Positions 2,369 to 39,746 of a stretch of 64,000 nt of DNA are shown piece after piece. The notes under the pieces are model-generated. The model worked only from the letters and a program-made list of their open reading frames with translations, had not been told where the DNA came from and did no database searches. Both the position numbers and the translations under genes were made by a program. The stretch covers positions 1,627,267-1,691,266 of the forward strand of contig OY968772.1 of NCBI GenBank assembly GCA_963695275.1, in the 5' to 3' direction. How positions within the stretch are numbered: position 1 is the stretch's first letter; each line of letters starts with the position of its first letter. Source of the DNA: an uncultured Solirubrobacterales bacterium. Its GTDB lineage: Bacteria; Actinomycetota; Thermoleophilia; Solirubrobacterales; 70-9.

Positions 2369-3133
2369 CTAGCCGAGCGCCGCGAGGATCGCTTCGAGCT
2401 CCGCAACCACGTCGCCACCCAGCTTCAGCTCGGCGTCAGTGTCGTAGGGGGTCTCGCCGACGGTGACGATCGCCAGGCGGCCGCCGCGCTCGAGGGTCAG
2501 CTGCGGCAGCCCGGCCACCGGGTAGACCGCAAGCGAGGAACCGACGCAGATCATCAACTCGGCCCGCTCGGCGAGATCGCGGGCGCTGGCCATGGCGCTT
2601 TCGGAAAGCATCTCGCCGAAGAGGACCACGTCCGGTTTGACGGCGCCGCCGCAGCTGGAGCAGATCGCGACGCCGGCAACGTCGAAGAGCGCGTCGACCT
2701 CGTCGAGTCCGAAGGCCGTGGCGCAGCGAGTGCAGGAGGAGGTCTCGATCGAGCCGTGCACCTCGATCACGTCTTCCGAGCCGGCGGCGCGGTGCAGGCA
2801 GTCGATGTTCTGGGTGATCACGGCCTCGATCAGGCCGCGGCGCTCGAGCTCGGCCAGCGCCTCGTGGGCAGCGTTGGGGCGTTTGTCGCCGAGCGACTGG
2901 AAGCGCGGCCGGTAATAGGACCAGAAGCGCGCCGGGTCGCGTTCGAAGACGTCGATGTGGGCGACCTCCATCGGGTCGACGTTCGCCCACAACCCGGTCT
3001 CCGGCGTCCGAAAGTCCGGAATCCCGGACGGCACCGAAACCCCGGCCCCTGTCAGCACCACCGTGCACCCCGACCCGCGAATCAACTCCGCAAGTCGCAA
3101 AATCTCGGCCGACGGGCCGATTTCGGGAGCCAT
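2369..3133 (-). CDS. cobB: NAD-dependent protein deacylase, Sir2 family
   Basis: Contains 'GAGVSVPSGIPDFR', 'QNIDCLH' and the Zn ribbon CTRC..CSSC. Start trimmed to ATG 3133 so it does not overlap the upstream gene's end. Confidence 0.9.
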   Translation of the reverse strand: MAPEIGPSAEILRLAELIRGSGCTVVLTGAGVSVPSGIPDFRTPETGLWANVDPMEVAHIDVFERDPARFWSYYRPRFQSLGDKRPNAAHEALAELERRGLIEAVITQNIDCLHRAAGSEDVIEVHGSIETSSCTRCATAFGLDEVDALFDVAGVAICSSCGGAVKPDVVLFGEMLSESAMASARDLAERAELMICVGSSLAVYPVAGLPQLTLERGGRLAIVTVGETPYDTDAELKLGGDVVAELEAILAALG

Positions 3134-3165
3134 CGCCCCGCTATCGGCCCGTCGGCGGGCTGTTG

Positions 3166-5166
3166 CTAACTGCCGCTCCATTTCGGGGTGCGCTTGCCGA
3201 GGAAGGCGCCGATGCCCTCTTTGGCGTCATCGCTGGCAAAGGCGGCGGCGAAGCCCTGCTTCTCGGCCTCGATGCCCTCGTCCAAGTCGCCTTTGGCGGA
3301 GACCGACTTGATCAGCCCGACCGCTACCGGCGCCTGCGAGGCCAGCTTGCGACCCCACATCAGCGCCGTCTCGAACAGCTCGTGATCGGGGACGACCCGG
3401 TTGACGAGGCCCAGTTCCAGCGCCTCCTCGGCGAGGACGGCGTCGCCGACCAGGTTCATCTCCAGCGCTTTGTTGGACCCGACCAGGCGCGCCAGTCGCT
3501 GGGTGCCGCCGAAGCCGGGGATGATCCCCAGCTTGATCTCGGGCTGGCCGAAGACGGCCGCCTCGGCGGCGATCCGCACGTCGCAGGCCATCGCCACCTC
3601 GCAGCCGCCGCCGAAGGCGATCGAGTTGACGGCGGCGATCGTCGCCACCCGCTCGGTCCCGAACTCACGCAGCAGCGCGTGCGCCTCGTGGATCAGCTTC
3701 TCGCCGGTGGCCTCGTCCATCTGGGTGAAGGCCTTGATGTCGGCGCCGGCCGAGAAGACGACCGGGACCGCGGAGGCGATCACCATCGCGCCAACCCTGT
3801 CGGCGGCCTTGACCTTCTCCCAGACCGTGCCGAGGTCGCGGATCACGTCGGGTGAGACGGCGTTCATCGGCAGGTTGGCGAGCCAGGCGATCGCGACGCC
3901 GTCGCGGGTCTCCAGCTTCACCGTCTCCGCCTGCTCGCCCTCGTCGGGCTGCGGGTAGGGGTAGAAGCCCTGGCCGGAGGCGAGGCCGAGGCGACCCTGG
4001 GCGACCAGGCGCTTGAGGGTGACCGGCGGCGCGAAGCGCTCCCCGTGCTTCTCCTGCAGCTGCTCGAGCTGCTCCAGCACCTTGCCGAGGCCTTCGACGT
4101 CGGCTTTCCAGAACGGCGGCAGCAGGCCCCGGCGCGGGTCGAGCCCGGCGCCGGCCATCATCCCGAGGTCGATGTCGCGGACCGAGCAGATCCCTTCCTC
4201 GAGCAGCAGGCAGGACTCGATCAGGGCGCGGCCGGTGAACATCGCCACCAGCTCCTCGGCGTCCGGGGCGGCGTCGCCCGGGATCGTCTGCTGCCCGTCC
4301 TTGAAGAAGCCCTCGCCGCCGCTCTTGGCGCCGAGCTTGCCGTCAGCCACCAGCTGCTTCAGGCCCTGGTGGACGTAGAAGGTCTCGCCGTAGGACTCGT
4401 TGAGGTGCTCGGCGACGTGGAGGACGGTGTCGAGGCCGAGCAGGTCGGTGAGGAAGAACGGTCCCATCGGCGCCACTTTCGCCTCGGCGATCGCCTGGTC
4501 GATCTGCGCCAACGAGAGCCCGTGCTCCTCCTGGGCGCGCCAGATCTCGCCGATCGTCGCCATCAGGATTTTGTTGACGACGAAGCCGGGGACCTCACCG
4601 CAGACGATCGGCTGCTTCTTGATCGCCTGGGCGAAGTTGTAGGCGGCGGTGGCGGTCTCCTGCGAGGTGTACTCGCCGACGATCACCTCGACCAGCGGCA
4701 TCACCGAGGCCGGGTAGAAGAAGTGGAAGCCGACGACCTTGTCGGAGCGCAGGGTCGATTCGCCGATCTCGGTAATCGAGAGCGAGGAGGTGTTGGAGGA
4801 GAGGATCGCGTGACCGGGGGTGGCGGCGTCGATCTCGGCGAAGACCGCCTGCTTGATCGCCATCTTCTCCGGCACGGCCTCGATCACGAAGTCGACGTCG
4901 CCGAACTCGTCGTAGCTGGTGGTGCCGGTGACCAGGCCCATCACCTCGGCCAGACGGGCGTCGGCCTGCTCCTGGGTCAGCTTCTCCTTCTTGACCAAGC
5001 GGGAGAGCTGGCCCTCGGTGACCGCGCGGGCCTTCTCGACGGCGGCATCGACGAACTTCTGGTCGATGTCCTTGACGACGACGGGGATATCGGCGGCGGC
5101 GATCGCCTGGGCGATCTCGCCGCCCATGGTGCCGCCGCCGACGACGGCGGCCTTGGAAACGAACAT
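3166..5166 (-). CDS. Bifunctional 3-hydroxyacyl-CoA dehydrogenase (N-term) / enoyl-CoA hydratase (C-term)
   Basis: N-terminal Rossmann 'VVGGGTMGGEIAQ' plus an HCDH C-domain. The C-terminal crotonase fold shows 'VFSAGADIKAF' and 'AFGGGCEVAMACD'. Confidence 0.9.
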   Translation of the reverse strand: MFVSKAAVVGGGTMGGEIAQAIAAADIPVVVKDIDQKFVDAAVEKARAVTEGQLSRLVKKEKLTQEQADARLAEVMGLVTGTTSYDEFGDVDFVIEAVPEKMAIKQAVFAEIDAATPGHAILSSNTSSLSITEIGESTLRSDKVVGFHFFYPASVMPLVEVIVGEYTSQETATAAYNFAQAIKKQPIVCGEVPGFVVNKILMATIGEIWRAQEEHGLSLAQIDQAIAEAKVAPMGPFFLTDLLGLDTVLHVAEHLNESYGETFYVHQGLKQLVADGKLGAKSGGEGFFKDGQQTIPGDAAPDAEELVAMFTGRALIESCLLLEEGICSVRDIDLGMMAGAGLDPRRGLLPPFWKADVEGLGKVLEQLEQLQEKHGERFAPPVTLKRLVAQGRLGLASGQGFYPYPQPDEGEQAETVKLETRDGVAIAWLANLPMNAVSPDVIRDLGTVWEKVKAADRVGAMVIASAVPVVFSAGADIKAFTQMDEATGEKLIHEAHALLREFGTERVATIAAVNSIAFGGGCEVAMACDVRIAAEAAVFGQPEIKLGIIPGFGGTQRLARLVGSNKALEMNLVGDAVLAEEALELGLVNRVVPDHELFETALMWGRKLASQAPVAVGLIKSVSAKGDLDEGIEAEKQGFAAAFASDDAKEGIGAFLGKRTPKWSGS

Positions 5167-5224
5167 TCGGGTGAGTCCTCCGATTTTGGCTTGACGGAGC
5201 GGCGCGGGCCGCTGGAACCGCAGG

Positions 5225-6919
5225 CTATACGGATGCCTGCGGCTCCCGCCCCTCGGCCTCTTCGCCCTCCTCCGGCTTGAAGCGCTGATAGGCGAAGGCG
5301 CCGATCAAGAGCAGCAGACCGAGGGCGACGAACGACAGCGCTCGCGGCAGCTCTTCGAGCTCGGCGAGGTCGTAGGTCCAGACCTTGCCGATCACCAGCG
5401 CCAGCAGGGCCAGGCCGCCCAGACGGACGTTCACGGACCGCCGCACCATGCCGACGATCACCGCGCCGAGGCCGGCGGCGGCCCAGAAGGCCGAGAGCCA
5501 GGACTGGCCGATCTCGCGAGCTTCGCCCCCCTCGTCGGTGCCGATCGCGTCGATGATCAGGACCGAGCCCAGGTAGACGAACCCGGTGGCGCCGACGAAG
5601 CCGGCCACGGTCGCGACGCGGCGATCGACACCGCGGCCGAAGTGCCAGCAGGCGAGAGCGGCGACGGCACAGGAGGCGATCGCCACCAGCGAGCTGCCGA
5701 GGTCGTCAACCCCTTCGGCGATCGCGGCCGGCGGCGCCTCGATGACGAGGACATGGGCGATCGCGAGGCCGAGGAAGCCGCAGGCCGCCAGCAGCAGGCG
5801 CCTCGCGTCGGAGAGCGCCGGTGCCGGCGACGCGTCGACCCGGGTCGAGAGATAGGCGAGCGCGGCGGCCGCGGCCGCCCAGGTGGCGACGACCGTGGGG
5901 CCGTCGAAAGCGCTGGCGACCCCGAACGCCGCCAAGCCGATCCCGCCGCCGGTCAGGAGCGAGCCGATTTCGCGGTGGACGCCGAAGCGGATCGCCGCGG
6001 CGCCGAGCAGGAGATGGGCGGCGGCGAAGCCGAAGATCCAGGCGTCCAGGGCGAGCGCCGAGCCGCCGCCGATCACGACGGCGCCGGCGCCGACGACAAA
6101 TACGCTGCCGCTGAGCAGCAGCAGCCAGGAGGAAACCGGCAGGCGCTCTTCGCCGCGGCTGCGCAGCTCGTAGCCGAAGGCGGCCGCCGCGTAAAGGACC
6201 CAGAACCCGACCAGGACCGCGAGGACGAGCGGAACGGGCTGGCTCGGATTGGGCTCCCCCTCGAGGGTGATGAACCCGCTCGAGCCGATCCAGGCAACGA
6301 GCTGGGGAGCGGAGATCGCGAAGGCGCCCAGCGCGAGCCAGTCCCAGCGCTGCCAGAGGAGGACGCCGACGCCGGCGGCGAGGGCAATGGCGACGAAGGC
6401 GATCGACCCGCCCTCGCTGGCGGTGCCGACGAAGATCGGCGCGGCCAGGGCGCCCAGGATCCCGACGCTGCCGACGAGCATCGAGGACCAGCGCACGGCG
6501 ATGGCCACCCCGATGACGCCGATCAGCGCCGCGGCCTCGAGACCGAGGACCGGCGAGATCAAGTCGTAGGTCTGGGTGGCGACCACCGTCGTCGCGTAGA
6601 GGCCCGGAATCCCGACGGCCACCAGCAGCCGGCCGAGCTCTATGTGTCCCTTCCGTTCATGCAGCCAGACGCCGGTGCCGAGCAGCAAGAGGGAGCCGAC
6701 CGCGGCGAGCAGGGCGCGCACCTCCTCCGTGAACCAGCTGCTGTCGACGGCGCTGCGCATCAGGAAGACGACGCCGAGCAGAGTCGCGAGGCCGCCGACC
6801 CAGGCCAGCACCCGACCGCCGAAGAGGCGCTCGAGCTCGATTCTCGACATCGGGTTGAAGGAGCCTGGCGGTGGCTCCTCCCCGTGTCCTGCCGGTTGAT
6901 CCAGTCTCTCGCTGTACAT
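5225..6919 (-). CDS. Polytopic membrane protein, DUF2339-like
   Basis: More than 12 predicted TM helices. The N-terminal 'LERLFGGRVLAWVGGLATLLGVVFL' resembles the DUF2339 family as I remember it. Confidence 0.7.
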   Translation of the reverse strand: MYSERLDQPAGHGEEPPPGSFNPMSRIELERLFGGRVLAWVGGLATLLGVVFLMRSAVDSSWFTEEVRALLAAVGSLLLLGTGVWLHERKGHIELGRLLVAVGIPGLYATTVVATQTYDLISPVLGLEAAALIGVIGVAIAVRWSSMLVGSVGILGALAAPIFVGTASEGGSIAFVAIALAAGVGVLLWQRWDWLALGAFAISAPQLVAWIGSSGFITLEGEPNPSQPVPLVLAVLVGFWVLYAAAAFGYELRSRGEERLPVSSWLLLLSGSVFVVGAGAVVIGGGSALALDAWIFGFAAAHLLLGAAAIRFGVHREIGSLLTGGGIGLAAFGVASAFDGPTVVATWAAAAAALAYLSTRVDASPAPALSDARRLLLAACGFLGLAIAHVLVIEAPPAAIAEGVDDLGSSLVAIASCAVAALACWHFGRGVDRRVATVAGFVGATGFVYLGSVLIIDAIGTDEGGEAREIGQSWLSAFWAAAGLGAVIVGMVRRSVNVRLGGLALLALVIGKVWTYDLAELEELPRALSFVALGLLLLIGAFAYQRFKPEEGEEAEGREPQASV

Positions 6920-7016
6920 CGGACTCCCCTTCCGTTCGCGTGCTTGTTGACCGTCGGTCGGTAACCGTAGCAGCAGCCTTATCGACCATTGGTCAGCAGC
7001 CGCTAGGATGTAGGCG

Positions 7017-7622
7017 ATGAACCAGCCCGCCTACACCCGCCTCGACGTCGACGAGCGGCGCCAGCAGCTGCTCGAACTGGGCGGCGAGCTGTTCACCAGC
7101 CATCCCTACGACGAGCTCTCGATGAGCCGGATCGCCACCGAGGCCGGCATCTCGAAATCCCTGCTCTACCACTACTTCCCGAGCAAGCGGGCCTTCTTCG
7201 AGGAGACGTTGAGCGCCTGGGCCGAGCAGCTGCGGGAACGGACCGAGCCGAACCCCGAACTGCCGCCGCTGGAGCAGCTCAAGGGCAGCCTCGAGGCCTT
7301 CCTCTCGCTGGTCGAGGAGAACGCCGGCGCCTACCGCAACCTGATGGACAGCGCCACCGGCGTCCCCGAGATCCGCGACCTGATCGACGAGGTGCGGCGC
7401 AAAACCGCGCAGCGGATCCTCGCCGAGCTCTACCTGAGCGACCCTCCGCCGAAGGCTCGGACCGCGGTCAACGGCTGGCTCTGGTTCATGGACGGAGCCT
7501 GCCTCAACTGGATCGAGCATCGGGACATCGAGCGGGGGGAGCTGAGGGACCTGCTGCTCGGCGTTCTGATGGGGGCGCTGCTGGCCGCCGACGCGCTGCC
7601 GGACGTCACTCAAGTCCCTTAG
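7017..7622 (+). CDS. TetR/AcrR-family transcriptional regulator
   Basis: N-terminal HTH 'YDELSMSRIATEAGISKSLLYHYFPSKRAFF'. Confidence 0.85.
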   Translation: MNQPAYTRLDVDERRQQLLELGGELFTSHPYDELSMSRIATEAGISKSLLYHYFPSKRAFFEETLSAWAEQLRERTEPNPELPPLEQLKGSLEAFLSLVEENAGAYRNLMDSATGVPEIRDLIDEVRRKTAQRILAELYLSDPPPKARTAVNGWLWFMDGACLNWIEHRDIERGELRDLLLGVLMGALLAADALPDVTQVP

Positions 7623-7646
7623 CCGGGCTGCCGATATCCGGAGTTC

Positions 7647-8171
7647 ATGCGCAGGGGCACCTCCATCCTTCTCGCGGGGGCGATCGTGGCCGTGCTCACG
7701 GCCGGGCTCTGCGCGAGCGCGCTCGGCAAGGTGCCGATCGCGACCCTGACGCCGGGCGGTCGGGCGATCGCTCCCCCCTCCGCCCCGCCCGCGGTCAAGG
7801 CGATGATCGAAGCGGCCAACCGGATCCACCACCGCCCCTACGTCTGGGGCGGCGGCCACCGGCACTGGAACTCGCGCGGCTACGACTGCTCCGGCTCGGT
7901 CAGCTACGTGATGCACGCCGCCGGGCTGCTCGAGTCCCCTCTGGACTCGACCGGGTTCATGCGCTGGGGCGGCGGTGGAGGCGGCAGCTGGGTGCGGATC
8001 TACGCCAACCACGAGCACGTCTTCGCCGTCATCGCCGGCCTGCGCTGGGACACCTCCTACAGCGAAGACGGCGACCGCAGTGGTCCCGGCTGGAGCGAAG
8101 AGATGCGGCCGGCCGACGGCTTCCGCCTGCGCCACCCGCTCGGGCTCGAACGTGTGGTTCCGCTCTCCTGA
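7647..8171 (+). CDS. Secreted NlpC/P60 (C40)-like peptidase
   Basis: Signal/TM at the N-terminus. 'YVWGGGH..GYDCSGSVSYV' gives the catalytic Cys context, followed by the 'NHEHVF' His. Confidence 0.65.
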   Translation: MRRGTSILLAGAIVAVLTAGLCASALGKVPIATLTPGGRAIAPPSAPPAVKAMIEAANRIHHRPYVWGGGHRHWNSRGYDCSGSVSYVMHAAGLLESPLDSTGFMRWGGGGGGSWVRIYANHEHVFAVIAGLRWDTSYSEDGDRSGPGWSEEMRPADGFRLRHPLGLERVVPLS

Positions 8172-8346
8172 CGGGCGCGAGGCGGAGCCGACAGCAGGGA
8201 CAACCGGCGGCTGGCAACGCTGTACGCCGGTACAAAGGCGCCCCGAGCGCCCTCCGGTTAGGCTCTTTTGGCTCTTCATAAGGGAGTTAGACCGCTAATC
8301 GAACGCGCCCGCACCGGCGCGCGACAAGTGAGGGACAAGCCAAGCG

Positions 8347-10497
<2,151 letters not shown>

Positions 10498-25230: not shown

Positions 25231-25256
25231 TCTCGCACCACGCTTAAGCAGCAAAA

Positions 25257-25287
25257 CGGGACCCGCTACGGTGGGTCCCGTTTTTTT
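25257..25287 (+). terminator. Rho-independent terminator of cspA
   Basis: CGGGACCC-gctacggt-GGGTCCCG followed by TTTTTTT. Confidence 0.85.
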
Positions 25288-25358
25288 ATGCAGCTGGGGG
25301 CTGTTCGGCGATTCAGGGCCGAGCAGTCCAAGGACGCAGGAGCGAATGTGCTCTGCAC

Positions 25359-27230
25359 ATGAGCGACGAGGACACAGGAATGCGAAGTGCCATGAAACGC
25401 CGAACAGACCTCAGAAACATCGCGATTATTGCCCACGTGGACCATGGCAAGACGACGCTGGTCGACGCGATGCTGTGGCAGACCGGCACCTTCCGCAAGG
25501 GCCAGGACGTCGCCGAGCGGGTGATGGACTCGATGGACCTCGAGAAGGAGAAGGGGATCACGATCCTCGCCAAGAACACGGCGGTGACCCGCGGCGACGT
25601 CAAGTTCAACATCGTCGACACCCCCGGCCACGCAGACTTCGGCGGCGAGGTCGAGCGCGCCCTGACCATGGTCGACGGCGTCCTGCTCCTGGTCGACGCC
25701 TCCGAGGGACCGCTGCCGCAGACCCGCTTCGTGCTGCGCAAGGCGCTGGAGTCGAAACTGCCGGTGATCCTCGTCGTCAACAAGGTCGACCGGCCCGACG
25801 CCCGCATCGCCGAGGTCGTCGAGGAGGTCTACGAGCTCTTCATCGACCTCGACGCCGACTCCGACCAGATCGACTTCCCGATCGTCTACACCAACGCCAA
25901 AGCCGGCTGGGCGGCGCTCGAGGAGGGGGTCGAGGGCACCGACCTCTCCCCCCTGCTCGACCTGATGCTGGAGCGGATCCCCGCCCCGACCTACGAGGAG
26001 GACCACCCACTGCAGGCGCACGTGACCAACCTCGACGCCTCGCCCTATCTCGGCCGCCTGGCGCTCTGTCGGGTCCGCAACGGGACGATCCGCGCCGGCC
26101 AGCAGATCGCCTGGTGCAAGGCCGACGGCACGGTCGCCCGCGCCACCGTCGCCGAGCTCTTCATCACCGAGGCCCTGGAGCGGGTCTCCGCCAAAGAGGC
26201 CGGGCCGGGCGAACTGATCGCCGTCGCCGGCATGGAAGAGGTGACGATCGGCGAGACCCTGGCCGACGTCGCGGACCCGCGGCCGCTGCCGGTGATCACC
26301 GTCGACGAGCCCTCGCTCTCGATCGTGCTCGGCATCAACACCTCGCCGCTGGCCGGTAAAGAGGGCACCAAGCTGACCGCCCGCCAGGTCCGCGACCGGC
26401 TCGACGCCGAGCTCGTCGGCAACGTCTCGATCCGCGTCCTCGACACCGAGCGCCCCGACGCCTGGGAGGTCCAGGGCCGCGGCGAGCTGCAGCTCGTCGT
26501 GCTGCTGGAGCTGATGCGCCGCGAAGGCTTCGAGATGACCGCCGGCCAGCCGCGCGTCCTCACCCGCGAGGTCGACGGCAAGGTCCACGAGCCGGTCGAG
26601 CGCCTGGCGATCGACGTCCCCGAGGAGCACGTCGGCTCAGTCACCCAGCTGCTCGCCGGGCGCAAGGGCCGGCTCGAGCAGATGGTCAACCACTCGACCG
26701 GGTGGGTGCGGATGGAGTACCTGGTCCCGGCCCGCGGCCTAATTGGGTTCCGCACCGAGTTCCTCACCGAGACCCGCGGCACCGGCATCCTCCACCACGT
26801 CTTCGACCGCTGGGAGCCCTGGGCCGGCGAGCTGCGCACGCGCCCGACCGGCGCCCTCGTCGCCGACCGCCAGGGCAAGACCGCCAGCTTCGCCCTCTTC
26901 AGCCTGCAGGACCGCGGCACCCTCTTCATCGGCCCCGGCGAGGAGGTCTACGAGGGCATGATCGTCGGCGAGAACGCCCGCTCCGAGGACCTCGACGTCA
27001 ACGCGGTCAAGGAGAAGCACCAGACCAACGTCCGCGCCGCCAGCGCCGACCTGCTGGTCCGCCTCACCCCGGCGACCCGGCTCTCGTTGGAGAACTCGCT
27101 GGAGTTCGTGCGCGACGACGAGTGCGTCGAAGTGACGCCCGAGTCGGTCCGCCTGCGCAAGCTGGTGTTGGAGAAAACGGCGCGCCAGAAGGCGGCGCGC
27201 CAGCGCTCCCGCGCCGGCGTCGCCAGCTAA
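25359..27230 (+). CDS. typA: Translational GTPase TypA/BipA
   Basis: '[16 protein letters not shown]', '[12 protein letters not shown]', 'NKVDR' and the BipA-specific C-terminal domain. The true start may be ATG 25380 or 25392. Confidence 0.95.
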
Positions 27231-33039: not shown

Positions 33040-34044
33040 TCAAGCACCAGCTGCGACGACGATGATGAAGCTGGCGTAGAGGAGGAACCAGCCGATGACC
33101 GCTGGCAATTTGAAGCGGCGCGCTAGGTGGAGGCTCTCGTAGGCCAGCAGTCCTCCCGCCAAGCCGAGGCCGATTGAGAGGATCGCGTTGCCGCTGAGAT
33201 CCCAGTCGGTGAAGATCAGGCCGATCCCGACCGGGATCATCGACTGGAAGACCATCGCCCCAGTGATGTTGCCGAGCGCCAGCGCGTCCTTGCCTTCGCG
33301 CACCCAGAAGAAGCTGTTGACCTTCTCCGGCAGCTCGGTCGCCAGGGGCGCCAGGATCAGGGCCAGGACGAGGGCCTCGACGCCGATGCTGTCGGCGATC
33401 GTCAGCAGCTCTTCGACGAAGAGGTGGGCACCGCCAACCATTGCCCCGAGGCCGACAAGCAGCTGGATTACGCAGAGCGAGAGCGCCGGGTCTTCGCGGC
33501 GCTCGCCGCGGCGCTCGAAGATCAGCGGGTTCAGCGACTCCTCGCTCTGGACCTCGCCGCTGCCGCGCAGGGTGAGGCGGATGTAGAAGACGTAGGCGAC
33601 GAGGAAGCCGACCCCGACGGCGATGCGGACCGGCGCCGGCGGACCCCAGGAGAGCAGCCCCGCGAGGGTGAAGAGGACGAGGAAGAAGGTGAGGTCGCGC
33701 TCCAGGGTCGGCCTGTGCACGTCGAGCTGAACCCCCTGCTCGCGTTTGTGGCGGTAGAGGTAGGCGAAGAGCCCGACCAGGCCCATCGCCAGCGTCGCCA
33801 GCAGGAAGGGCGCGCCGACGATGGCGCCGATCGCGACGTCTTCGGAGCCGGCGTTGACGCTGAGCAGGGCGACGATCGCGATCAGCGTCTCCGGCATCGC
33901 CGTCCCGACCGCGGCCAGCAGGCTGCCGACCGCCCCCTCTCCCAGCTCCAGGTTGTGCCCGATCCACTCCACCGCATTGGTGAACAACAAAGCGCCGGCC
34001 AGCACCACGGCGAAGCTGAGCAGAAGCAGCAGGGCTTCTCCCAT
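33040..34044 (-). CDS. Na+/Ca2+ exchanger family protein (CaCA, YrbG-like)
   Basis: Two alpha-repeats, 'GTAMPETLIAIVA' and 'GNITGAMVFQSMIPVG', with about 10 TM segments. ATG 34044 overlaps the mazF stop (TGATG). Confidence 0.85.
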   Translation of the reverse strand: MGEALLLLLSFAVVLAGALLFTNAVEWIGHNLELGEGAVGSLLAAVGTAMPETLIAIVALLSVNAGSEDVAIGAIVGAPFLLATLAMGLVGLFAYLYRHKREQGVQLDVHRPTLERDLTFFLVLFTLAGLLSWGPPAPVRIAVGVGFLVAYVFYIRLTLRGSGEVQSEESLNPLIFERRGERREDPALSLCVIQLLVGLGAMVGGAHLFVEELLTIADSIGVEALVLALILAPLATELPEKVNSFFWVREGKDALALGNITGAMVFQSMIPVGIGLIFTDWDLSGNAILSIGLGLAGGLLAYESLHLARRFKLPAVIGWFLLYASFIIVVAAGA

Positions 34045-34349
34045 CAACTCAACCCGAGATCGAACGCGGCCGCGATCGCTTCACCGAGAGCCGGCTCCTG
34101 GCTCTCAAGCAGGAGGCCGATCTGCTCCCCTACGGCATCGGTGGGAATGGTGGTGATGTTGTCGCAACTGACGACCGAGGGCTCCGCGAGGCCGTTCATG
34201 GCATCGACGCCGACCTCGCTGGAGAGCCCGCGGATCGTCGTGGTGATCGGCGCTACGGTGACGGTCCTCAGATGCGGCCGTACGAGCTCACGCGTGAGGA
34301 CCAGCACAGGCCGCGCCTTGTCGAGCCGTGCGACGTGGATGGGCCGCAT
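34044..34349 (-). CDS. mazF: Type II toxin, MazF/PemK-family mRNA interferase
   Basis: 'RPVLVLTRE..VTVAPITTTIRGLSSEV..PSVVSCDNITTIP' is the PemK/MazF pattern. Confidence 0.85.
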   Translation of the reverse strand: MRPIHVARLDKARPVLVLTRELVRPHLRTVTVAPITTTIRGLSSEVGVDAMNGLAEPSVVSCDNITTIPTDAVGEQIGLLLESQEPALGEAIAAAFDLGLS

Positions 34350-34582
34350 CAGGCCAGATCACGCGGGAGGCCCGCCGCGTACTCGGCGAGCCCTGCGAGC
34401 TCCGGGTCCGGACCGGTCCGGGCGAGAATCCGGGCATCCCGTTCCGCGAGGGCACGCCGACGCTCCCGCTCGAGCGCCCGGGTCACGACAGCTGCGCGGC
34501 TGCGCTCGTTACCGGAGTCGACAATCTCGTCAACGAAGTCGACAAGCTCATCTGGGAGTCGGACGGCGATCTGCTTGCTCAT
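34349..34582 (-). CDS. Ribbon-helix-helix antitoxin (MazE/CopG-like)
   Basis: 'MSKQIAVRLPDELVDFVDEIV..RSRAAVVTRALE'. Its stop overlaps the mazF ATG (ATGA). It is the C-terminal part of listed ORF 34349..34894. Confidence 0.75.
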   Translation of the reverse strand: MSKQIAVRLPDELVDFVDEIVDSGNERSRAAVVTRALERERRRALAERDARILARTGPDPELAGLAEYAAGLPRDLA

Positions 34583-34629
34583 CCCATGATGGTAGCGAAA
34601 CGGTAGCACCCAAAGAGTAGGTTCAATCG

Positions 34630-35295
34630 ATGGATTGGACCGACGGGCTTCAGGTCTTCTGTGCCGACGTGGGGTCGATCGCGCGCGGCAGCTTCGCCTG
34701 GGCGCGACGAATCCCAGGTTCCAACGGTGAGAAACCCCAACGGCCGGAGAGCATCGAGTCGCTTGCGGATTCGGTTGTTCATGCCCTCCACAACGGCGAC
34801 CCGGTAGCTCTCGGCTTCGAGGCGCCGCTGTTCCTGCCAGTGCCGGAGGACCCGAATCGACTTGGAAAGGCGCGGCCCTGCGATGCCCCTTCACCGTCGT
34901 GGTCGAGCAGTGTCGGTGCGTCAGTCCTCGCGACGGCGATGGTACAGATCCCGTGGACCCTGCGGGTCATCCACGAACAGGTACCCGACCTTCGGGTACA
35001 CGTTCAGTGGCCACGGTTCGCCGAGCAACGGGAGGGGCTGCTTCTTTGGGAGGCATTCGTCAGCGGGGCGGCAAAGGGTGAGACGCACGAGGAGGATGCT
35101 CGCAGTGGAGTACAGGCATTCTGCGAGCAGCTGCCGAACCCTGGCGACCCCAGCGCCACAGAAACGGAAAGACCGTTCTCCGTATTGGCTGCTGCGGCGA
35201 TTTGGGCGGGGCTCGATCTACCAATTGAGGACACGCGCGGTGGATGTCTGCTTGTACGCGCGACTCACCCACCGGACCCTCTGGGAACAGAATGA
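34630..35295 (+). CDS. Hypothetical protein, possible RNase H-like/RuvC-like fold nuclease (very tentative)
   Basis: ORF in the lower-GC island. Spaced acidic blocks 'VFCADVGS', 'ALGFEAPLF' and 'LWEAF..HEEDA' suggest the fold, but no family was recognised with certainty. Confidence 0.45.
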   Translation: MDWTDGLQVFCADVGSIARGSFAWARRIPGSNGEKPQRPESIESLADSVVHALHNGDPVALGFEAPLFLPVPEDPNRLGKARPCDAPSPSWSSSVGASVLATAMVQIPWTLRVIHEQVPDLRVHVQWPRFAEQREGLLLWEAFVSGAAKGETHEEDARSGVQAFCEQLPNPGDPSATETERPFSVLAAAAIWAGLDLPIEDTRGGCLLVRATHPPDPLGTE

Positions 35296-35326
35296 TGTTT
35301 CTCGCGCAAAGCGGGAGAATGCTGCC

Positions 35327-35758
35327 ATGAGCGAAGGAGTTGACTCAACCCCGAACCCCTGGCGGATTCAGGTGCGTGAACACCCAGCGCGCCGCGATAG
35401 CTCCGAATGGAGGGATGCCATAGGGGCCGCGGTGGAGGCCGCCTATCCGCAGGCGCCGTTCACCTCGCCTCACCTGAAGGCCGCCAGGTTCACCGTCGAG
35501 GTGACCTTCTGGATGACTCCTTTGGACCTGGCGAGGCCGGCCGTCGACCTCGACAACTTCGTCAAGCCTGTCCTCGACACACTCTTCACCTCGCAGAACG
35601 TCCGGAGACTCACCGGGGTCCTTCTCCCCGACGTGAACGACACGCGGGTGTTCCGACTCCTCATCGAGAAGGACGAAGTAGATAGTCCCGAGGACCAGGG
35701 GGCGGATATCACCATCTCCTGGGACCCTGCGACCACCCCGGGTCTCAGCGCCCCCTGA
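35327..35758 (+). CDS. RusA-like Holliday-junction resolvase family protein
   Basis: 'VDLDNFVKPVLDTL' and 'NDTRVFRLLIEK' align with E. coli RusA 'RDLDNLQKAAFDAL' and 'DDAQVVDYRVVK' (quoted from memory). ATG 35327 lies within listed ORF 34862..35758. Confidence 0.6.
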   Translation: MSEGVDSTPNPWRIQVREHPARRDSSEWRDAIGAAVEAAYPQAPFTSPHLKAARFTVEVTFWMTPLDLARPAVDLDNFVKPVLDTLFTSQNVRRLTGVLLPDVNDTRVFRLLIEKDEVDSPEDQGADITISWDPATTPGLSAP

Positions 35759-35910
35759 CGCTCCTCGCGCAAAACAGCAACGGTGGACCGGTTCCCGCTT
35801 CGACCTCGAATCTTCGCCAACCACGCCCCATCTCGCCTCCCTTGATCCACCAGGCGCCTCCAAGGTTTCAAGGGTTGGCGAGCGCCGCGGATCAGAAGTA
35901 CCATCGAAGC

Positions 35911-36264
35911 ATGACTCCGCGCCAGTTCCGCATCGGGGGACTCGTCCTTTCCGCGGCCTTCGCCATCCTCGGCATCTGGGCACTCGCTGAAGCCAAATAC
36001 GGCACCGGCACGCTATGGCTCGTAATGAGCGTTGCGTGGGTGCTGCTCGACTTCTTCAGAAACAACACTCAGCGGGCGCAAGAGCGTCGGCGACAGCGAT
36101 TGGAGGCAAAGTACGCGTCACAACCGATCCCGGCGCAGCCGGACAACCTTCCCCGTTGGTTCAGCCCGGATAACCCGCCTGGTTGGTACTTGAATCCAGC
36201 CACCAACGAACCTGCCTACTGGTCTGAGATCGGCTGGCGGTCGAAGGAACCGAGCGCGACCTAA
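35911..36264 (+). CDS. 2-TM membrane protein with DUF2510-like C-terminal motif
   Basis: 'IGGLVLSAAFAILGIWAL' and 'LWLVMSVAWVLLDFF' are TM segments. 'PPGWYLNPATNEPAYWSEIGW' resembles the GWYxDP..RYWDGxxW motif. Confidence 0.5.
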   Translation: MTPRQFRIGGLVLSAAFAILGIWALAEAKYGTGTLWLVMSVAWVLLDFFRNNTQRAQERRRQRLEAKYASQPIPAQPDNLPRWFSPDNPPGWYLNPATNEPAYWSEIGWRSKEPSAT

Positions 36265-36430
36265 CCAGAATCGTTCATGAAGAGGGCGTCTACGACCGGC
36301 AGGTGACGCGCTCGAAAGTCGCGCAAAGTAGGGGCGCCGTCTCGGCCTTCAGTCTGAACCACGAACTGATTGGGCATCACGAGCATCTCCCCATTCGTCG
36401 CATCACGAAAGGCGTGAGCCTCTGGATCGA

Positions 36431-37648
36431 CTAGACGGTCACGTGATCGGGCAGTCCACGTTCGCCCAGAACGATTTCCGCCACGTACTCGGGTACCTCT
36501 GCATAGCGCTCGAACTGCATCGTGTAGCTGGCTCGTCCCTGAGTCGAGGAGCGAAGGTCGGTGGCGTAGCCAAACATTTCGCCCAGCGGGACGAAGGCCT
36601 GGACCGCGAGCGCGTTGCCGCGCTGGTCCTGGCCCTGGACTTTGCCGCGGCGTCGGGAGAGATCGCCGATGACGTCGCCGAGGAAGTCCTCGGGGGTGAC
36701 GACCTCGACTGCCATCACCGGCTCCAGCAGGACCGGGTTGGCCTTGCGAGCACCCTCCTGGATCGCCATCGAGCCGGCGATTTTGAAGGCCATCTCCGAA
36801 GAGTCGACATCGTGGTAGGAGCCATCGACGAGTTCGACTTTGACGTCGACCATCGGATAGCCGGCCTTGACGCCGTTTTCCAGTGCCTCCCGCATCCCCT
36901 GTTCAGCCGGGCCGATGAATTCGCCGGGGATGGTGCCGCCCTTGATTTTGTTGACGAACTCGAAGCCCTCACCGGGAGCCGGCTCGAGGTTGATGACGAC
37001 ATGGCCGAACTGGCCGCGACCGCCGGTCTGGCGGACGAAACGGGCGACGACCTTCTCGGTCCGCTTGCGGATCGTCTCGCGGTAGGCGACCTGCGGCTTG
37101 CCGACGTTGGCGTCGACTTTGAACTCGCGCAGCATGCGGTCGACGATCACCTCGAGGTGGAGCTCGCCCATGCCGTGGATCAGGGTCTGGCCCGTTTTCT
37201 CGTCGGATTCGATCCGGAAGGTCGGGTCCTCCTCGCCCAGGCGCTGCAGGGCATTGCCCATCTTCTCCTGGTCGGCTTTCGTTTTCGGCTCGATCGCGAC
37301 GGCGATCACGGTCTCGGGGAACTCTCTTTCGAATCGGTTCAGGACTGAACAAACCTGATTGCGGAGCGCCATCAGGTCGTCGTCGTCGATGATCGGCTCA
37401 CCAGACACGACCAACTCCACCGCATACTGCTCGTCCGCGGGACGAACTCTTAACAGCACTACGCCGGAAGGCTCGTCAACAATGAATCGGTGAGCGAGCG
37501 TGTACACGCCTAGTTGTTGAGTACCGTGGAACCGTAGTTCCAACTCTTGGCTCAAGGACTCGCGGAGCGGAGCGGTCAACGCCGCGGCCGAGAGTGGTTC
37601 CGTCCACATGACTTCCAGATGGCTCACGAGGCTTCCGCCGCCTGCCAT
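36431..37648 (-). CDS. GTPase-less EF-G paralogue: novel ~105-aa N-domain fused to EF-G domains III-IV-V
   Basis: Long blocks are near-identical to EF-G ('[12 protein letters not shown]', '[14 protein letters not shown]', '[14 protein letters not shown]', '[10 protein letters not shown]', '[16 protein letters not shown]', '[11 protein letters not shown]'). No P-loop, DxxG or NKxD. Start is ambiguous: ATG 37648, GTG 37627 (GTGA overlap) or ATG 37609. Confidence 0.8.
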
Positions 37649-38463
37649 TCGTTGAAAGACCACACCACCCAATCCGAAGCCCTGAAGTGGGAGGAGACGG
37701 GCTGTGCGCTGGATACGTCCGGAGGACCCTTGGACGGAAACACGGCGAGCGTGATGTCGCGGCCTATCAGATCGCCGATCCGGCATGAGAAAAAGAAGAC
37801 TCGTGGAACAGCACGCTCGACGAGGTCTTTCCGCGCAAAGTTGTAGGCGGGATGCTTGAAGCGCGCGTCCTCCGGCGCTTGCCCCAGGTCAGTGATGATC
37901 GTTACGCAGCGCTCGAAGATCGAATCGCTTGAAATCTGGACGTCAACGTCGCTCTCGTCAGGACTGACTCCCAGCTTGTGCATGCAATCAAACGGACGTT
38001 GCACCGGGAAGATCTCGTCCGTAACCCACTCGGTACGGAGCCGAGTGTCGATCGCATCGATCTCCCACCGTTCGGGAACATCCCCTCGAGCGCTGCGAAA
38101 GGCATCAATCCATTCATCCCTGGTACACGGAAGCGCCTTGTGGGGTCCTGAGAAAACACTAGCGGCGCTTCCCTGGATCCGTACATCGCAGTCGTTCGGA
38201 TCGACGTTGTCTTCGACCAACGCCTTTGCGAATTGAGTTTTGAACAGCTGATAGTCGGCAGGAGACATGCCGAGTGGTACTGCGCGCGACCGCCAGCCGC
38301 TAATCGCGTGTGGCTCGATCCGGAGGAACTTGATGTCGCGCTGGCGGAGTCCATAGCCGGAGGAGTCGCGAATCGGAGGGTCTAATACATTGTCTCCTTC
38401 ACCGGCCGACGTCTTAGTCTCCCCTTTGGTGGGCCCAGTCACAGGGATGCGGGCGCGGTCCAT
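37624..38463 (-). CDS. Hypothetical 279-aa protein, first gene of the EF-G-like operon (enzyme fold unresolved)
   Basis: Intact ORF in lower-GC DNA, preceded by 152 nt of non-coding sequence. It contains '[13 protein letters not shown]' and '[11 protein letters not shown]', but with spacing atypical for Pol-beta NTases. Confidence 0.6.
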
Positions 38464-38615
38464 GGTGCAGAAGCCATCCTAGCGTCTATGTATCGGATGG
38501 CGCAACGAAGCCTTGAACTCGTTAGGAGTGCGCCGAAATGGAGTATTCCCGCTTCCGCGTGAAAGCAGCAGCGAGACGAAATCTCCTCGGCGGCCCCGGT
38601 CCCGCCCCCCCTCAC

Positions 38616-39746
38616 TCACGCAAAGTAGAAAGCCAGCCCAAACACGAAGTAGATCGCCAGCAGCTGCACTCCCTCGAACCAGGTCGACTCTCCGTCTTGG
38701 GTCACTTGATTCGCGATCAGGATCGCCAGCAGGATCGCGCCGAGCTCGAAGCCGTTGAAGACGAGCGCCAACGGATAGGGGCCGAGGAAGAAGGAGGCGA
38801 GGACCAGGACCGGGGCGACGAAGAGGGCGACCTGGGCGCTGGAGCCGACGGCGATGTTGACCGCCAGGTCCATCTTGTCTTTCATCGCGACCAGGACCGC
38901 GACCCAGTGCTCGGCGGCATTGCCGACGATCGCGACGACGATGACGCCGATGAAGAACTCGGAGAGCCCGATCGAGTGCGAGGCCTCGGTGATCGAGCCG
39001 ACCAGCACCTCCGACATCACCCCGACCAGGACGCCGGCGATCGCCAGGGCGATGACCGAGGTCCGCGTCGACCAGCCCCAGCTGTCCTCGTCCTCGTACT
39101 CGGGGTTGAAGAGGTCGCGGTGGGTCTTGAGCGAGAAGAAGAGGCCGATCACGTAGGTGGCGATGAGGACGACGGCGACGGCCAGCGAGAGGTGCTCGAC
39201 GGTGCCGCCGTAGTGAATCGCCTCCGCCCCGGGCGCCGGCAGCCCCTTGCCCTCGACCAGCTCGAAGATCGCCGGCATGATCAGCGCCGCGGCCGCCAAC
39301 ATCAGCATCGAGGTCTGGATGCTGGCGCTGGTGCGGCTGAAGGTCTGTTTGTCGCGGCCGATGCCGCCGGCCAGCATCGCCGCCCCGAGCACGAGCAGGA
39401 TGTTGCCGATGATCGAGCCGACGATCGAGGCCTTGACCACCTCCTGCAGCCCCTGGCCGAGGGCGAAGAGGGCGATGATCAGCTCCGGCGCGTTGCCGAA
39501 GGTGACGTTGAGCAGGCCGCCGATGCCCGGCCCCGAGCGCGCCGCCAGCTCCTCGGTGGCGCGGCCCATCAGCGCCGCCGTGGGGACGATCCCCAGCGCC
39601 GAGGTGGCGAAGACGACCGTTGCCGGAGCGCCGACGATCTCGAGCACGACCGCGATCGGAATCAGCGGCGTCAGCAGATAGGGCCAGCCGAGCGGGGTGC
39701 GGAAGAACGACGCATCCAGCCGCGGCTGGCCTGAACTCGAGTTCAT
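38616..39746 (-). CDS. chaA: Ca2+/H+ antiporter (CaCA superfamily, ChaA/CAX type)
   Basis: Paired 'GNAPELIIALFA' and 'GNAAEHWVAVLVA' motifs with 11 TM segments. Confidence 0.9.
   Translation of the reverse strand: MNSSSGQPRLDASFFRTPLGWPYLLTPLIPIAVVLEIVGAPATVVFATSALGIVPTAALMGRATEELAARSGPGIGGLLNVTFGNAPELIIALFALGQGLQEVVKASIVGSIIGNILLVLGAAMLAGGIGRDKQTFSRTSASIQTSMLMLAAAALIMPAIFELVEGKGLPAPGAEAIHYGGTVEHLSLAVAVVLIATYVIGLFFSLKTHRDLFNPEYEDEDSWGWSTRTSVIALAIAGVLVGVMSEVLVGSITEASHSIGLSEFFIGVIVVAIVGNAAEHWVAVLVAMKDKMDLAVNIAVGSSAQVALFVAPVLVLASFFLGPYPLALVFNGFELGAILLAILIANQVTQDGESTWFEGVQLLAIYFVFGLAFYFA

Follow-up and report, generated by a model that had tools for sequence, protein, structure and literature searches.

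Polymorphic toxins exported by type VII secretion (WXG100/LXG), such as those of the actinobacterial Eat-type loci (PMC13444075) and of the catalogue of Zhang et al. 2012 (PMC3482391), are among the described systems closest to the two-gene locus examined here, which lies in a stretch of 64,000 nucleotides from an uncultured Solirubrobacterales bacterium (GCA_963695275.1, contig OY968772.1, positions 1,627,267 to 1,691,266; hereafter the window). Its upstream gene, here called gene A, encodes an enzyme-like protein, and its downstream gene, gene B, joins a small N-terminal domain (the B domain) to domains III-V of elongation factor G (EF-G). As in the type VII toxins, the A domain occurs in other loci at the C-terminus of proteins with a WXG100-like domain, a small partner gene follows directly after the toxin, sometimes in tandem, and the neighbours comprise WXG100, deaminase-toxin, SUKH-immunity and EccC-like genes. 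Unlike in those systems, gene A of the window has no export domain and no main toxin gene nearby, and Pfam has no family for either the toxin or the immunity domain. Searching the text of the 2012 catalogue (PMC3482391) returned no immunity fusions to EF-G or to polynucleotide phosphorylase (PNPase), and immunity domains fused to copies of essential host proteins were found neither in the polymorphic-toxin catalogue nor in full-text searches. An earlier reading of this DNA (the original prediction) had named no described family built on EF-G domains III-V, which agrees with the literature and defence-library searches.

Other systems share part of this organization. Orphan Rhs tip/immunity pairs acting as type II toxin-antitoxin systems (PMC7043789) likewise consist of a delivery-less toxin tip and its immunity gene inside the producer, and set a precedent for the conversion of a weapon into an internal module; they differ in toxin family and secretion lineage, and the accessible part of that report describes no variable immunity module. 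The MenT/MenA systems (DUF1814, AbiEii-like; PMC7450476, PMC10435456) also combine an actinobacterial toxin bearing a GS...DxD-type signature with a small neutraliser, and have a functional tie to 3′ exoribonucleases, namely to RNase PH, where the present family has a DEDDh gene and fusions to PNPase, but A matches neither DUF1814 nor any nucleotidyltransferase family by sequence or fold, and its motifs stand 55-75 aa apart. In the guard and decoy defences PrrC-EcoprrI, PARIS and Ronin (PMC12409349) a toxin is restrained by a partner that resembles the attacked host or defence component or is that component itself, as is proposed below for gene B; one B domain (locus L009) is joined to a whole restriction enzyme, in an arrangement reminiscent of PrrC and EcoprrI, whereas none of these defences uses covalently fused copies of housekeeping proteins. 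The gene layout would be compatible with a type II toxin-antitoxin operon with coupled translation; the DNA-binding domains typical of type II antitoxins (helix-turn-helix, ribbon-helix-helix, AbrB) are absent from gene B in a Pfam scan. Toxin/immunity and toxin-antitoxin pairs are known kinds; what would be new here is an immunity domain joined to copies of essential proteins that appear to track the host.

Gene A, the B domain and the EF-G module

Both open reading frames (ORFs) of the original prediction, 37624..38463 and 36431..37786 on the minus strand, are present as described, and comprise the following features:

37624..38463, minus strand: gene A, encoding 279 aa with the signature GS...SDxDxQ (enzyme-like toxin domain, standalone)
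37624..37627, minus strand: GTGA overlap, in which the stop of A is shared with the start of B (sequence read directly)
37319..37627, minus strand: B domain, aa 1-103 of gene B, presumed immunity protein or antitoxin (homology to partners of A elsewhere)
37097..37321, minus strand: EF-G domain III (Pfam EFG_III, E 7e-33, full length 1-75/75)
36737..37096, minus strand: EF-G domain IV (Pfam EFG_IV, E 5e-45, 1-121/121), both tip loops intact
36476..36733, minus strand: EF-G domain V (Pfam EFG_C, E 2e-29), followed by a 14-aa tail and the stop codon at 36431-36433

The product of gene A had been taken for an orphan. It belongs to a family of at least 80 loci, for which 16 relatives were found in the protein collection and 76 further loci by pattern scans, in Streptomyces, Micromonospora, Mycolicibacterium, Microbacterium, Nocardioides, Kribbella, Conexibacter, Thermoleophilaceae and Acidimicrobiia, all of them Actinomycetota. 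No model in Pfam, NCBIfam, PADLOC or PHROGs matched gene A, and its family has no relative on viral contigs. According to Pfam, the A domain forms the extreme C-terminus of proteins with WXG100_2 and Gln_amidase domains in Micromonospora (L015) and Mycolicibacterium (L011), and in L056 that of a protein with WXG100_2 only. In many genomes the frame of A continues upstream without a stop over 600 to more than 2,000 codons, and GC content by codon position indicates that these long N-terminal regions are genuinely coding in frame in at least 15 loci. Among 150 neighbour genes surveyed, WXG100 proteins, YwqJ-like deaminase toxins, SUKH-3 immunity proteins and YbaB were identified, the signature of type VII-secreted polymorphic toxin loci, and EccC-like genes were present as well.

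Fourteen residues of catalytic appearance are invariant in standalone and toxin-tip forms of A alike (D93, R95, G98, S99, S105, K109, D159, D172, D174, R235, G246, P247, D264 and W265). The gene of the window, which has its own start codon, is closest to the other standalone loci (44-52% identity, against 27-41% for the rest). Judged by these relatives, gene A is a standalone, presumably non-secreted copy of the toxin-tip domain of large type VII-secreted polymorphic toxins. As A occupies the tip of WXG100-type toxins and the B domain lies directly downstream, the A and B pair is very probably a toxin/immunity-type cassette, and the gene order of the family speaks for the operon of toxin plus neutraliser that had been proposed originally. 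The pair would then add a toxin family and its cognate immunity family, both new by the evidence of the libraries, that are spread across the Actinomycetota, and in one clade the tip of a type VII toxin would exist together with its immunity protein as a stand-alone intracellular pair.

Two observations on long toxin frames may be added. The proteins of L011 (1639-6666) and L015 (2809-6660) each carry two putative toxin domains, with a papain-fold glutamine deamidase in the centre and A at the tip. The long frame upstream of A in L006/L047, at first sight a 1,337-aa "toxin", was rejected as a high-GC artefact: its GC pattern fits another frame and it has no Pfam matches.

Gene B is started by the public gene call at the GTG of the overlap (37627), as the original prediction had allowed, which gives a protein of 398 aa. 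Gene A ends GCC TCG TGA, GGAAG lies 6-10 nt upstream of the overlapping GTG, and a 4-nt overlap with the stop of A is the commonest A-B arrangement across the loci; the overlap argues for translational coupling of the two genes. The N-terminal region of about 105 aa, originally regarded as novel and impossible to place, proved to be a conserved domain: genes after A in other loci start with a homologue of about 100 aa (blastp 1e-13), found directly after A in 53 of 80 loci with jackhmmer and in about 60 of 82 with a hidden Markov model, so that the two genes do co-occur elsewhere. This conservation was revealed through gene neighbourhoods and not by direct protein search, since the word-index protein search found no relative for the B domain alone and only 13 standalone partners for an alignment of 26 sequences. 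The B domain is presumed to be the immunity protein or antitoxin partner of A, following the rules of polymorphic toxin systems (PMC3482391, PMC13444075). Its AlphaFold2 (AF2) model is confident (predicted local distance difference test, pLDDT, 92), shows a beta-alpha-beta3-alpha topology and has no significant neighbour in the PDB. No PADLOC system matched gene B, and neither the toxin nor the immunity part of the pair belongs to a PHROGs or NCBIfam family. Tandem B-domain genes, resembling immunity arrays, follow the toxin gene in L055, L056/L060, L062 and L064/L065. A tblastn match of about 30 residues of EF-G domain II to the end of the B domain was discarded as a chance beta-hairpin likeness, the B domain being conserved without EF-G.

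The remainder of gene B is a canonical EF-G1-type III-IV-V unit, as originally described. The three Pfam domains follow one another back to back, only positions 400-686 of the NCBIfam EF-G model (TIGR00484) are matched, and neither the G domain (P-loop, DxxG, NKxD) nor domain II was found with Pfam or NCBIfam, which excludes a function of gene B as translocase or GTPase. With residues 402-687 of Thermus thermophilus EF-G the module shares 66% identity in an alignment nearly free of gaps, in which the Thermus sequence is preserved in both domain-IV tip loops, [11 protein letters not shown] as well as SYHDVDSS. The junction with the B domain coincides with the EF-G domain II/III boundary (Thermus residue 402) and is followed by 295 stop-free codons. 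Almost the same span is present in the isolated EF-G III-V fragment of PDB entry 2MZW.

Modules on other B domains and the history of the EF-G module

Modules joined to B domains were sought in the loci and by an exhaustive HMMER search with the B domain of the window, the latter yielding proteins numbered with P. The following were recorded:

EF-G domains III-V: the window and L082
PNPase from about its first residue: L002, L005 and L043
RNA polymerase alpha N-terminal domain (RpoA): L006/L047
S-adenosylmethionine (SAM) synthetase (MetK): L045
L17-like segment, N-terminal to the B domain: L071
vWA domain: L044
complete type ISP restriction-modification enzyme: L009
multi-pass membrane region: L003
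RES domain: P0043
VirD4/HerA-like ATPase: P0040
weak ORC/Cdc6-like ATPase: P0036
further membrane modules: P0035 and P0046
several modules without identification: various loci and proteins

Over the non-redundant loci, the architecture of B follows that of A. An extended B accompanies standalone A in 17 of 22 loci, and four of the other five are cut by a contig end, leaving L020 as the sole truly minimal B among them; A domains of large toxins are accompanied by a minimal B of about 105-135 aa in 15 of 17 loci, and both exceptions are doubtful. On this census, B in the standalone-A clade is a putative scaffold carrying a swapped-in module, the EF-G fusion being one case. Fusions to housekeeping proteins are probably under-counted, since clustering at 50% places them within clusters of genuine housekeeping proteins. 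A recurrent helical C-terminal module of about 240 aa, ending ...LVxCAMTREEFVAxVR, is common to P0037 and P0044, while P0045 was removed as a repetitive, eukaryote-like false positive.

The variety of modules bears on the original proposal that A is a toxin against EF-G with a target-mimicking antitoxin. Specific targeting of EF-G was rejected, as the same toxin family pairs with PNPase, RpoA, MetK, L17, vWA, RES, a restriction enzyme or no module at all, and EF-G is therefore not the defined target of the family. At best half of the proposal holds, in that the module may act as a decoy or bait.

The EF-G fusion was found a second time in an independent sample (L082, Logan SRR28902864), with the same A and the same junction of B domain and EF-G, at 95.4% DNA identity over 1,415 bases. 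The similarity starts about 85-110 bases upstream of A (from 38549 by BLAST, to about 38573 in a gapped alignment); beyond the shared segment the genes are unrelated, with a Na/Ca exchanger in the window and an ECF-sigma-like (extracytoplasmic function) gene in L082, and these different flanks indicate that the cassette has moved. The ECF-sigma-like protein of L082 (131-1552, minus strand) measures 473 aa and has a long tail rich in Pro, Glu and Ala. Divergence between the window and L082 is unevenly distributed over the cassette (dS, synonymous divergence; omega, ratio of nonsynonymous to synonymous divergence):

A: DNA identity 98.5%, dS 0.021, omega 0.69
B domain: DNA identity 96.1%, dS 0.040, omega 0.99
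EF-G part (171 nt): DNA identity 89.5%, dS 0.387, omega 0.12

Synonymous divergence is about 15-fold higher in the EF-G part than in the rest of the cassette, an excess with Fisher p = 1e-7. A similar division appears in GC content at third codon positions (GC3), which in the window is 0.68 both in A and in the B domain, rises to 0.85 in the EF-G part and lies at 0.87-0.95 in the surrounding host genes. In the three PNPase fusions the corresponding values are 0.65-0.69 for A, 0.57-0.66 for the B domain and 0.90-0.92 for PNPase, with 0.94 for the host flanks of L002. The vWA, membrane and unassigned modules have the same composition as the cassette itself.

As its substitutions and composition indicate, the EF-G module is apparently under purifying selection and is not a decaying pseudogene, and it is a probable copy of a high-GC, host-like fusA with a history separate from the rest of the cassette. 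A third possibility raised originally, a recently captured and decaying fusA fragment, is in this way divided: decay is refuted by the omega of 0.12 (over 171 nt), the lack of frameshifts, the second sample, the host-like GC3 and the separate divergence, and capture from fusA fits the same GC3. The simplest reading of the divergence step is that the EF-G module may still be exchanged with fusA by recombination; alternatively, the A/B-domain part may be what gets swapped. All PNPase fusions have kept one junction (TRVSVEI.GSEISFETG), and their PNPase parts are 90-98% identical, whereas their B domains have diverged to 43-66% identity, which points to an old and maintained fusion.

In seven metagenome contigs, and likewise in L082, the sequence breaks off between a few dozen and a few hundred codons after entering the housekeeping module, as is expected of assemblers if a near-identical resident copy exists, and these breaks suggest a general assembly blind spot for such fusions. 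The contigs with 3′ ends in the module (L002, L005, L006, L043, L045, L047 and L082) come from different assemblies. Truncated calls of "EF-G", "PNPase" or "RpoA" beside small unknown genes are not to be dismissed as pseudogenes, and assemblies tend to break there.

What the fused module may do

The account that we favour, although as a whole it falls a little short of an even chance, is that of a repurposed toxin/immunity pair carrying an EF-G bait. In this account the B domain would bind and neutralise A, which would act on RNA 3′ ends as a Pol-beta-like nucleotidyltransferase, and what was an inter-bacterial weapon would now serve inside the cell as a module of toxin-antitoxin or abortive-infection type. 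The bait would be the EF-G piece, either as a copy of a host protein that invaders attack or as a probe of the state of the ribosome; once it is engaged or modified, the hold of B on A would loosen, and A would shut down the cell.

The role of the EF-G module as bait or sensor, taken separately, is a possibility that we hold somewhat more doubtfully. It is suggested by the near confinement of modules to loci with a non-exported toxin, since a resident toxin needs a trigger and an immunity protein that merely blocks needs no add-on, and by the hypervariability of the modules, as in arms-race sensors. The housekeeping modules are core gene-expression proteins of the kind that phages take over. 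The neighbours of standalone loci include mazEF, PIN, dCTP deaminase-like and restriction endonuclease (REase) genes, and one module, a whole restriction enzyme, recalls PrrC held by EcoprrI (PMC12409349). The PNPase fusion of L005 (248-5724) stands beside PIN_2, DUF4325 (weak) and dCTP deaminase-like genes, and L001 beside a REase-ARP gene.

The NLR receptors of plants carry integrated decoys, which are offered here as an analogy. A bacterial counterpart, in which the antitoxin bears EF-G III-V, PNPase, RpoA, MetK or L17 as baits, recombination with the resident gene keeps them matched and a phage or competitor effector that binds or modifies the bait releases the nucleotidyltransferase-like toxin, is a rather unlikely proposal. 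If it held, the list of modules would be a catalogue of the host proteins attacked by actinobacterial phages. Modules acting as baits would mean that bacterial immunity has a sensing principle not described before, and they would point directly to the targets of phages.

Concerning the activity of A, an invariant motif pair (D-V-R-L-x-G-S-S-A-x-F-F-S-G-x-H-K and P-S-D-x-D-x-Q-I-S-S) is placed by the AF2 model with G98-S99 after a predicted strand and D172-x-D174 on a later strand. This motif, together with a recurrent link to 3′-5′ exoribonucleases, raises the idea of a Pol-beta-like nucleotidyltransferase-like activity, for and against which we consider the chances evenly balanced. A DEDDh 3′-5′ exonuclease gene adjoins A-B in 13 loci; in 12 of them, from four named genera and one uncultured metagenome-assembled genome, it lies directly after B (at about 7040-7700 in L016, L023, L025, L027, L028, L032, L033, L035, L037, L038, L039 and L040), and in Nocardioides upstream of A (L020, 4687-5283). 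The encoded protein, of about 197 aa and Rv2179c/RNase T-like, is 60-86% identical between genera and matches the PADLOC model "Effector Exonuclease", the sole PADLOC match among neighbours in the other loci. Another clade (3 loci) has PNPase, itself a 3′-5′ exoribonuclease, fused to B. In the mycobacterial MenT systems, RNase PH trims the nucleotides that the nucleotidyltransferase toxin MenT3 adds to tRNA 3′ ends (10.1101/2024.03.07.583660).

Two side observations concern these exonuclease loci. In L040 the DEDDh gene is possibly fused to, or overlaps with, a shortened B domain. In L020 (Nocardioides speluncae, 2501-9810) the cluster of exonuclease, A and B is adjoined by a full-length EF-G2 paralogue (NF009377, 1056 bits), and B is followed by an EccC/FtsK-like ATPase; the proximity of EF-G2 may be due to chance, yet it puts another member of the EF-G family next to this toxin family.

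Several results weigh against the favoured account. The two motifs of A are separated by a helical insertion of variable length, where about 10-13 aa are usual in Pol-beta enzymes. The structure search suggested with the original prediction produced confident models for A (pLDDT 84.9) and the B domain and no significant neighbour for either: searches of PDB and BFVD with the fold of A, and of PDB with that of the B domain, returned nothing at E < 0.09, the best PDB hit of A in Foldseek having E 0.56. TUT7, CutA and Tut1 recur in the Foldseek results of A only at E 2-6 and a TM score of about 0.2, which is chance level, a profile of A against PDB sequences gave a chance match to PheRS only, and no Pfam or NCBIfam nucleotidyltransferase family matched A. 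The Pol-beta hunch of the original prediction is matched by the invariant residues and left without confirmation by the fold search. Purified PNPase did not trim MenT3-modified tRNA (10.1101/2024.03.07.583660). The defence-island setting is anecdotal and not a statistical enrichment, the cassette has no PADLOC or PHROGs match and is absent from viral contigs, and the RES and membrane modules look like effectors rather than sensors. As to exchange with fusA, the divergence step consists of 171 nt at the end of one short-read contig, and the end of the L082 contig could be an assembly path into the fusA of that organism.

Among the other explanations, the one that survives best, unlikely as we consider it, is that the module strengthens immunity, whether by repairing damage, by mimicking a substrate through its tRNA-like shape or by anchoring the immunity domain to the ribosome. 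PNPase and the DEDDh protein would then reverse RNA 3′-end damage, and EF-G III-V, the part of EF-G that mimics the shape of tRNA, would fill the substrate surface of A or place immunity at the ribosome. Exoribonucleases are indeed linked to the family in two independent ways, through the DEDDh gene in 13 loci and the PNPase fusions in L002, L005 and L043; the trimming of MenT3-extended tRNA by RNase PH offers a parallel, EF-G, L17 and RpoA all come from RNA-handling machines, and the isolated III-V fragment has been solved as a stand-alone structure (2MZW). The MetK, vWA, RES, ATPase and restriction-enzyme modules do not fit this explanation, however, and immunity proteins of secreted toxins face the same enzyme without a module; moreover, the fold search gave no support to a nucleotidyltransferase fold of A, and the failure of PNPase on MenT3 products counts here too. 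If the modules were substrate mimics or repair partners, they would reveal what the toxin does.

It is less likely still that the fusions are functionless by-products of a recombination junction at the 3′ end of the immunity gene, which would occasionally run into captured or duplicated host genes, with the EF-G piece a recent passenger that has not yet decayed. The host-like GC3 of the EF-G and PNPase modules suggests a recent origin, the PNPase and RpoA fusions include an apparent native start codon and a translated leader, the exact gene B protein is a singleton in clustering at 90%, and the low omega could stem from repeated conversion by fusA instead of selection on the module itself. Chance joining does not sit easily with a junction exactly at the EF-G II/III boundary and the open frame after it, with an EF-G fusion present in two samples in different contexts, or with a PNPase fusion that has persisted although its B domains are down to 43% identity. 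A module is present in nearly all complete loci with standalone A, and the partners are non-random core gene-expression proteins and not local neighbours.

Orphan tip/immunity cassettes are typically carried by polymorphic toxin loci (PMC3482391), and the cassette of the window might be one of them, silent and serving as recombination stock for a full-length type VII toxin gene elsewhere in the genome, or kept only for immunity to the toxins of neighbours. The missing export domain of A and the tandem B-domain genes in toxin loci fit such an origin. We nevertheless consider it improbable: neither a relative of type VII toxin N-termini nor a further A or B domain is present in the window, A retains every invariant residue and starts from a codon of its own behind a leader that is conserved in L082, and the joining of modules to B in this clade only is left without an account.

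Finally, the original idea that the GTPase-less EF-G protein is itself the effector and jams the ribosomal A site, with A as its regulator, is very improbable. Ribosome binding by EF-G III-V is conceivable in principle, as the domain-IV loops are intact, but the N-terminal domain is of the immunity type, a small partner of a secreted toxin domain that usually lacks a module, the conserved enzyme-like component is A, and the module is interchangeable with unrelated proteins.

The low-GC island and its flanks

The cassette occupies one end of a lower-GC island, for which two further features were annotated:

34044..38615, no strand assigned: lower-GC island with the cassette, mazEF and three unassigned genes (GC profile)
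38464..38573, minus strand: leader of the cassette, probably with its promoter (where the segment common to L082 has its left edge)

Both the island and the non-coding gap of 152 nt upstream of gene A (38464-38615), noted originally, are real. In the GC profile of the window the GC content is about 0.58-0.65 between about 34.05 and 38.6 kb and about 0.70 elsewhere; the island of about 4.5 kb is flanked by two Na/Ca-exchanger genes (Na_Ca_ex, 33040-34047 and 38616-39746). A repeat search detected no convincing boundary repeats around it, and a consensus scan of the cassette region found no sigma-70 promoter or terminator.

Of the neighbours named in the original prediction, the mazF gene is well supported (PemK/MazF, 34044-34349, minus strand, Pfam E 6e-12), its ribbon-helix-helix antitoxin candidate, which precedes it, is weakly so (E 0.015), and the nuclease-like gene reaches only a sub-threshold RusA match. 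The mazEF-like pair spans 34044-34600 on the minus strand at the end of the island opposite to the cassette, and the start of mazF shares 34044-34047 with the stop of the Na/Ca-exchanger gene. The RusA match (E 0.072, on a longer frame) concerns a 153-aa ORF (35297-35758, plus strand) with a DLDNFVKPVLD motif, which may be a remnant of a prophage-type Holliday-junction resolvase. A 221-aa ORF (34630-35295) and a 140-aa membrane ORF (35842-36264) had no match in any library, and the unassigned island genes gave nothing in PADLOC, PHROGs or NCBIfam. While fusA is absent from the window, TypA/BipA (25248-27230, plus strand; TIGR01394, 913 bits) is present as its sole other translational GTPase.

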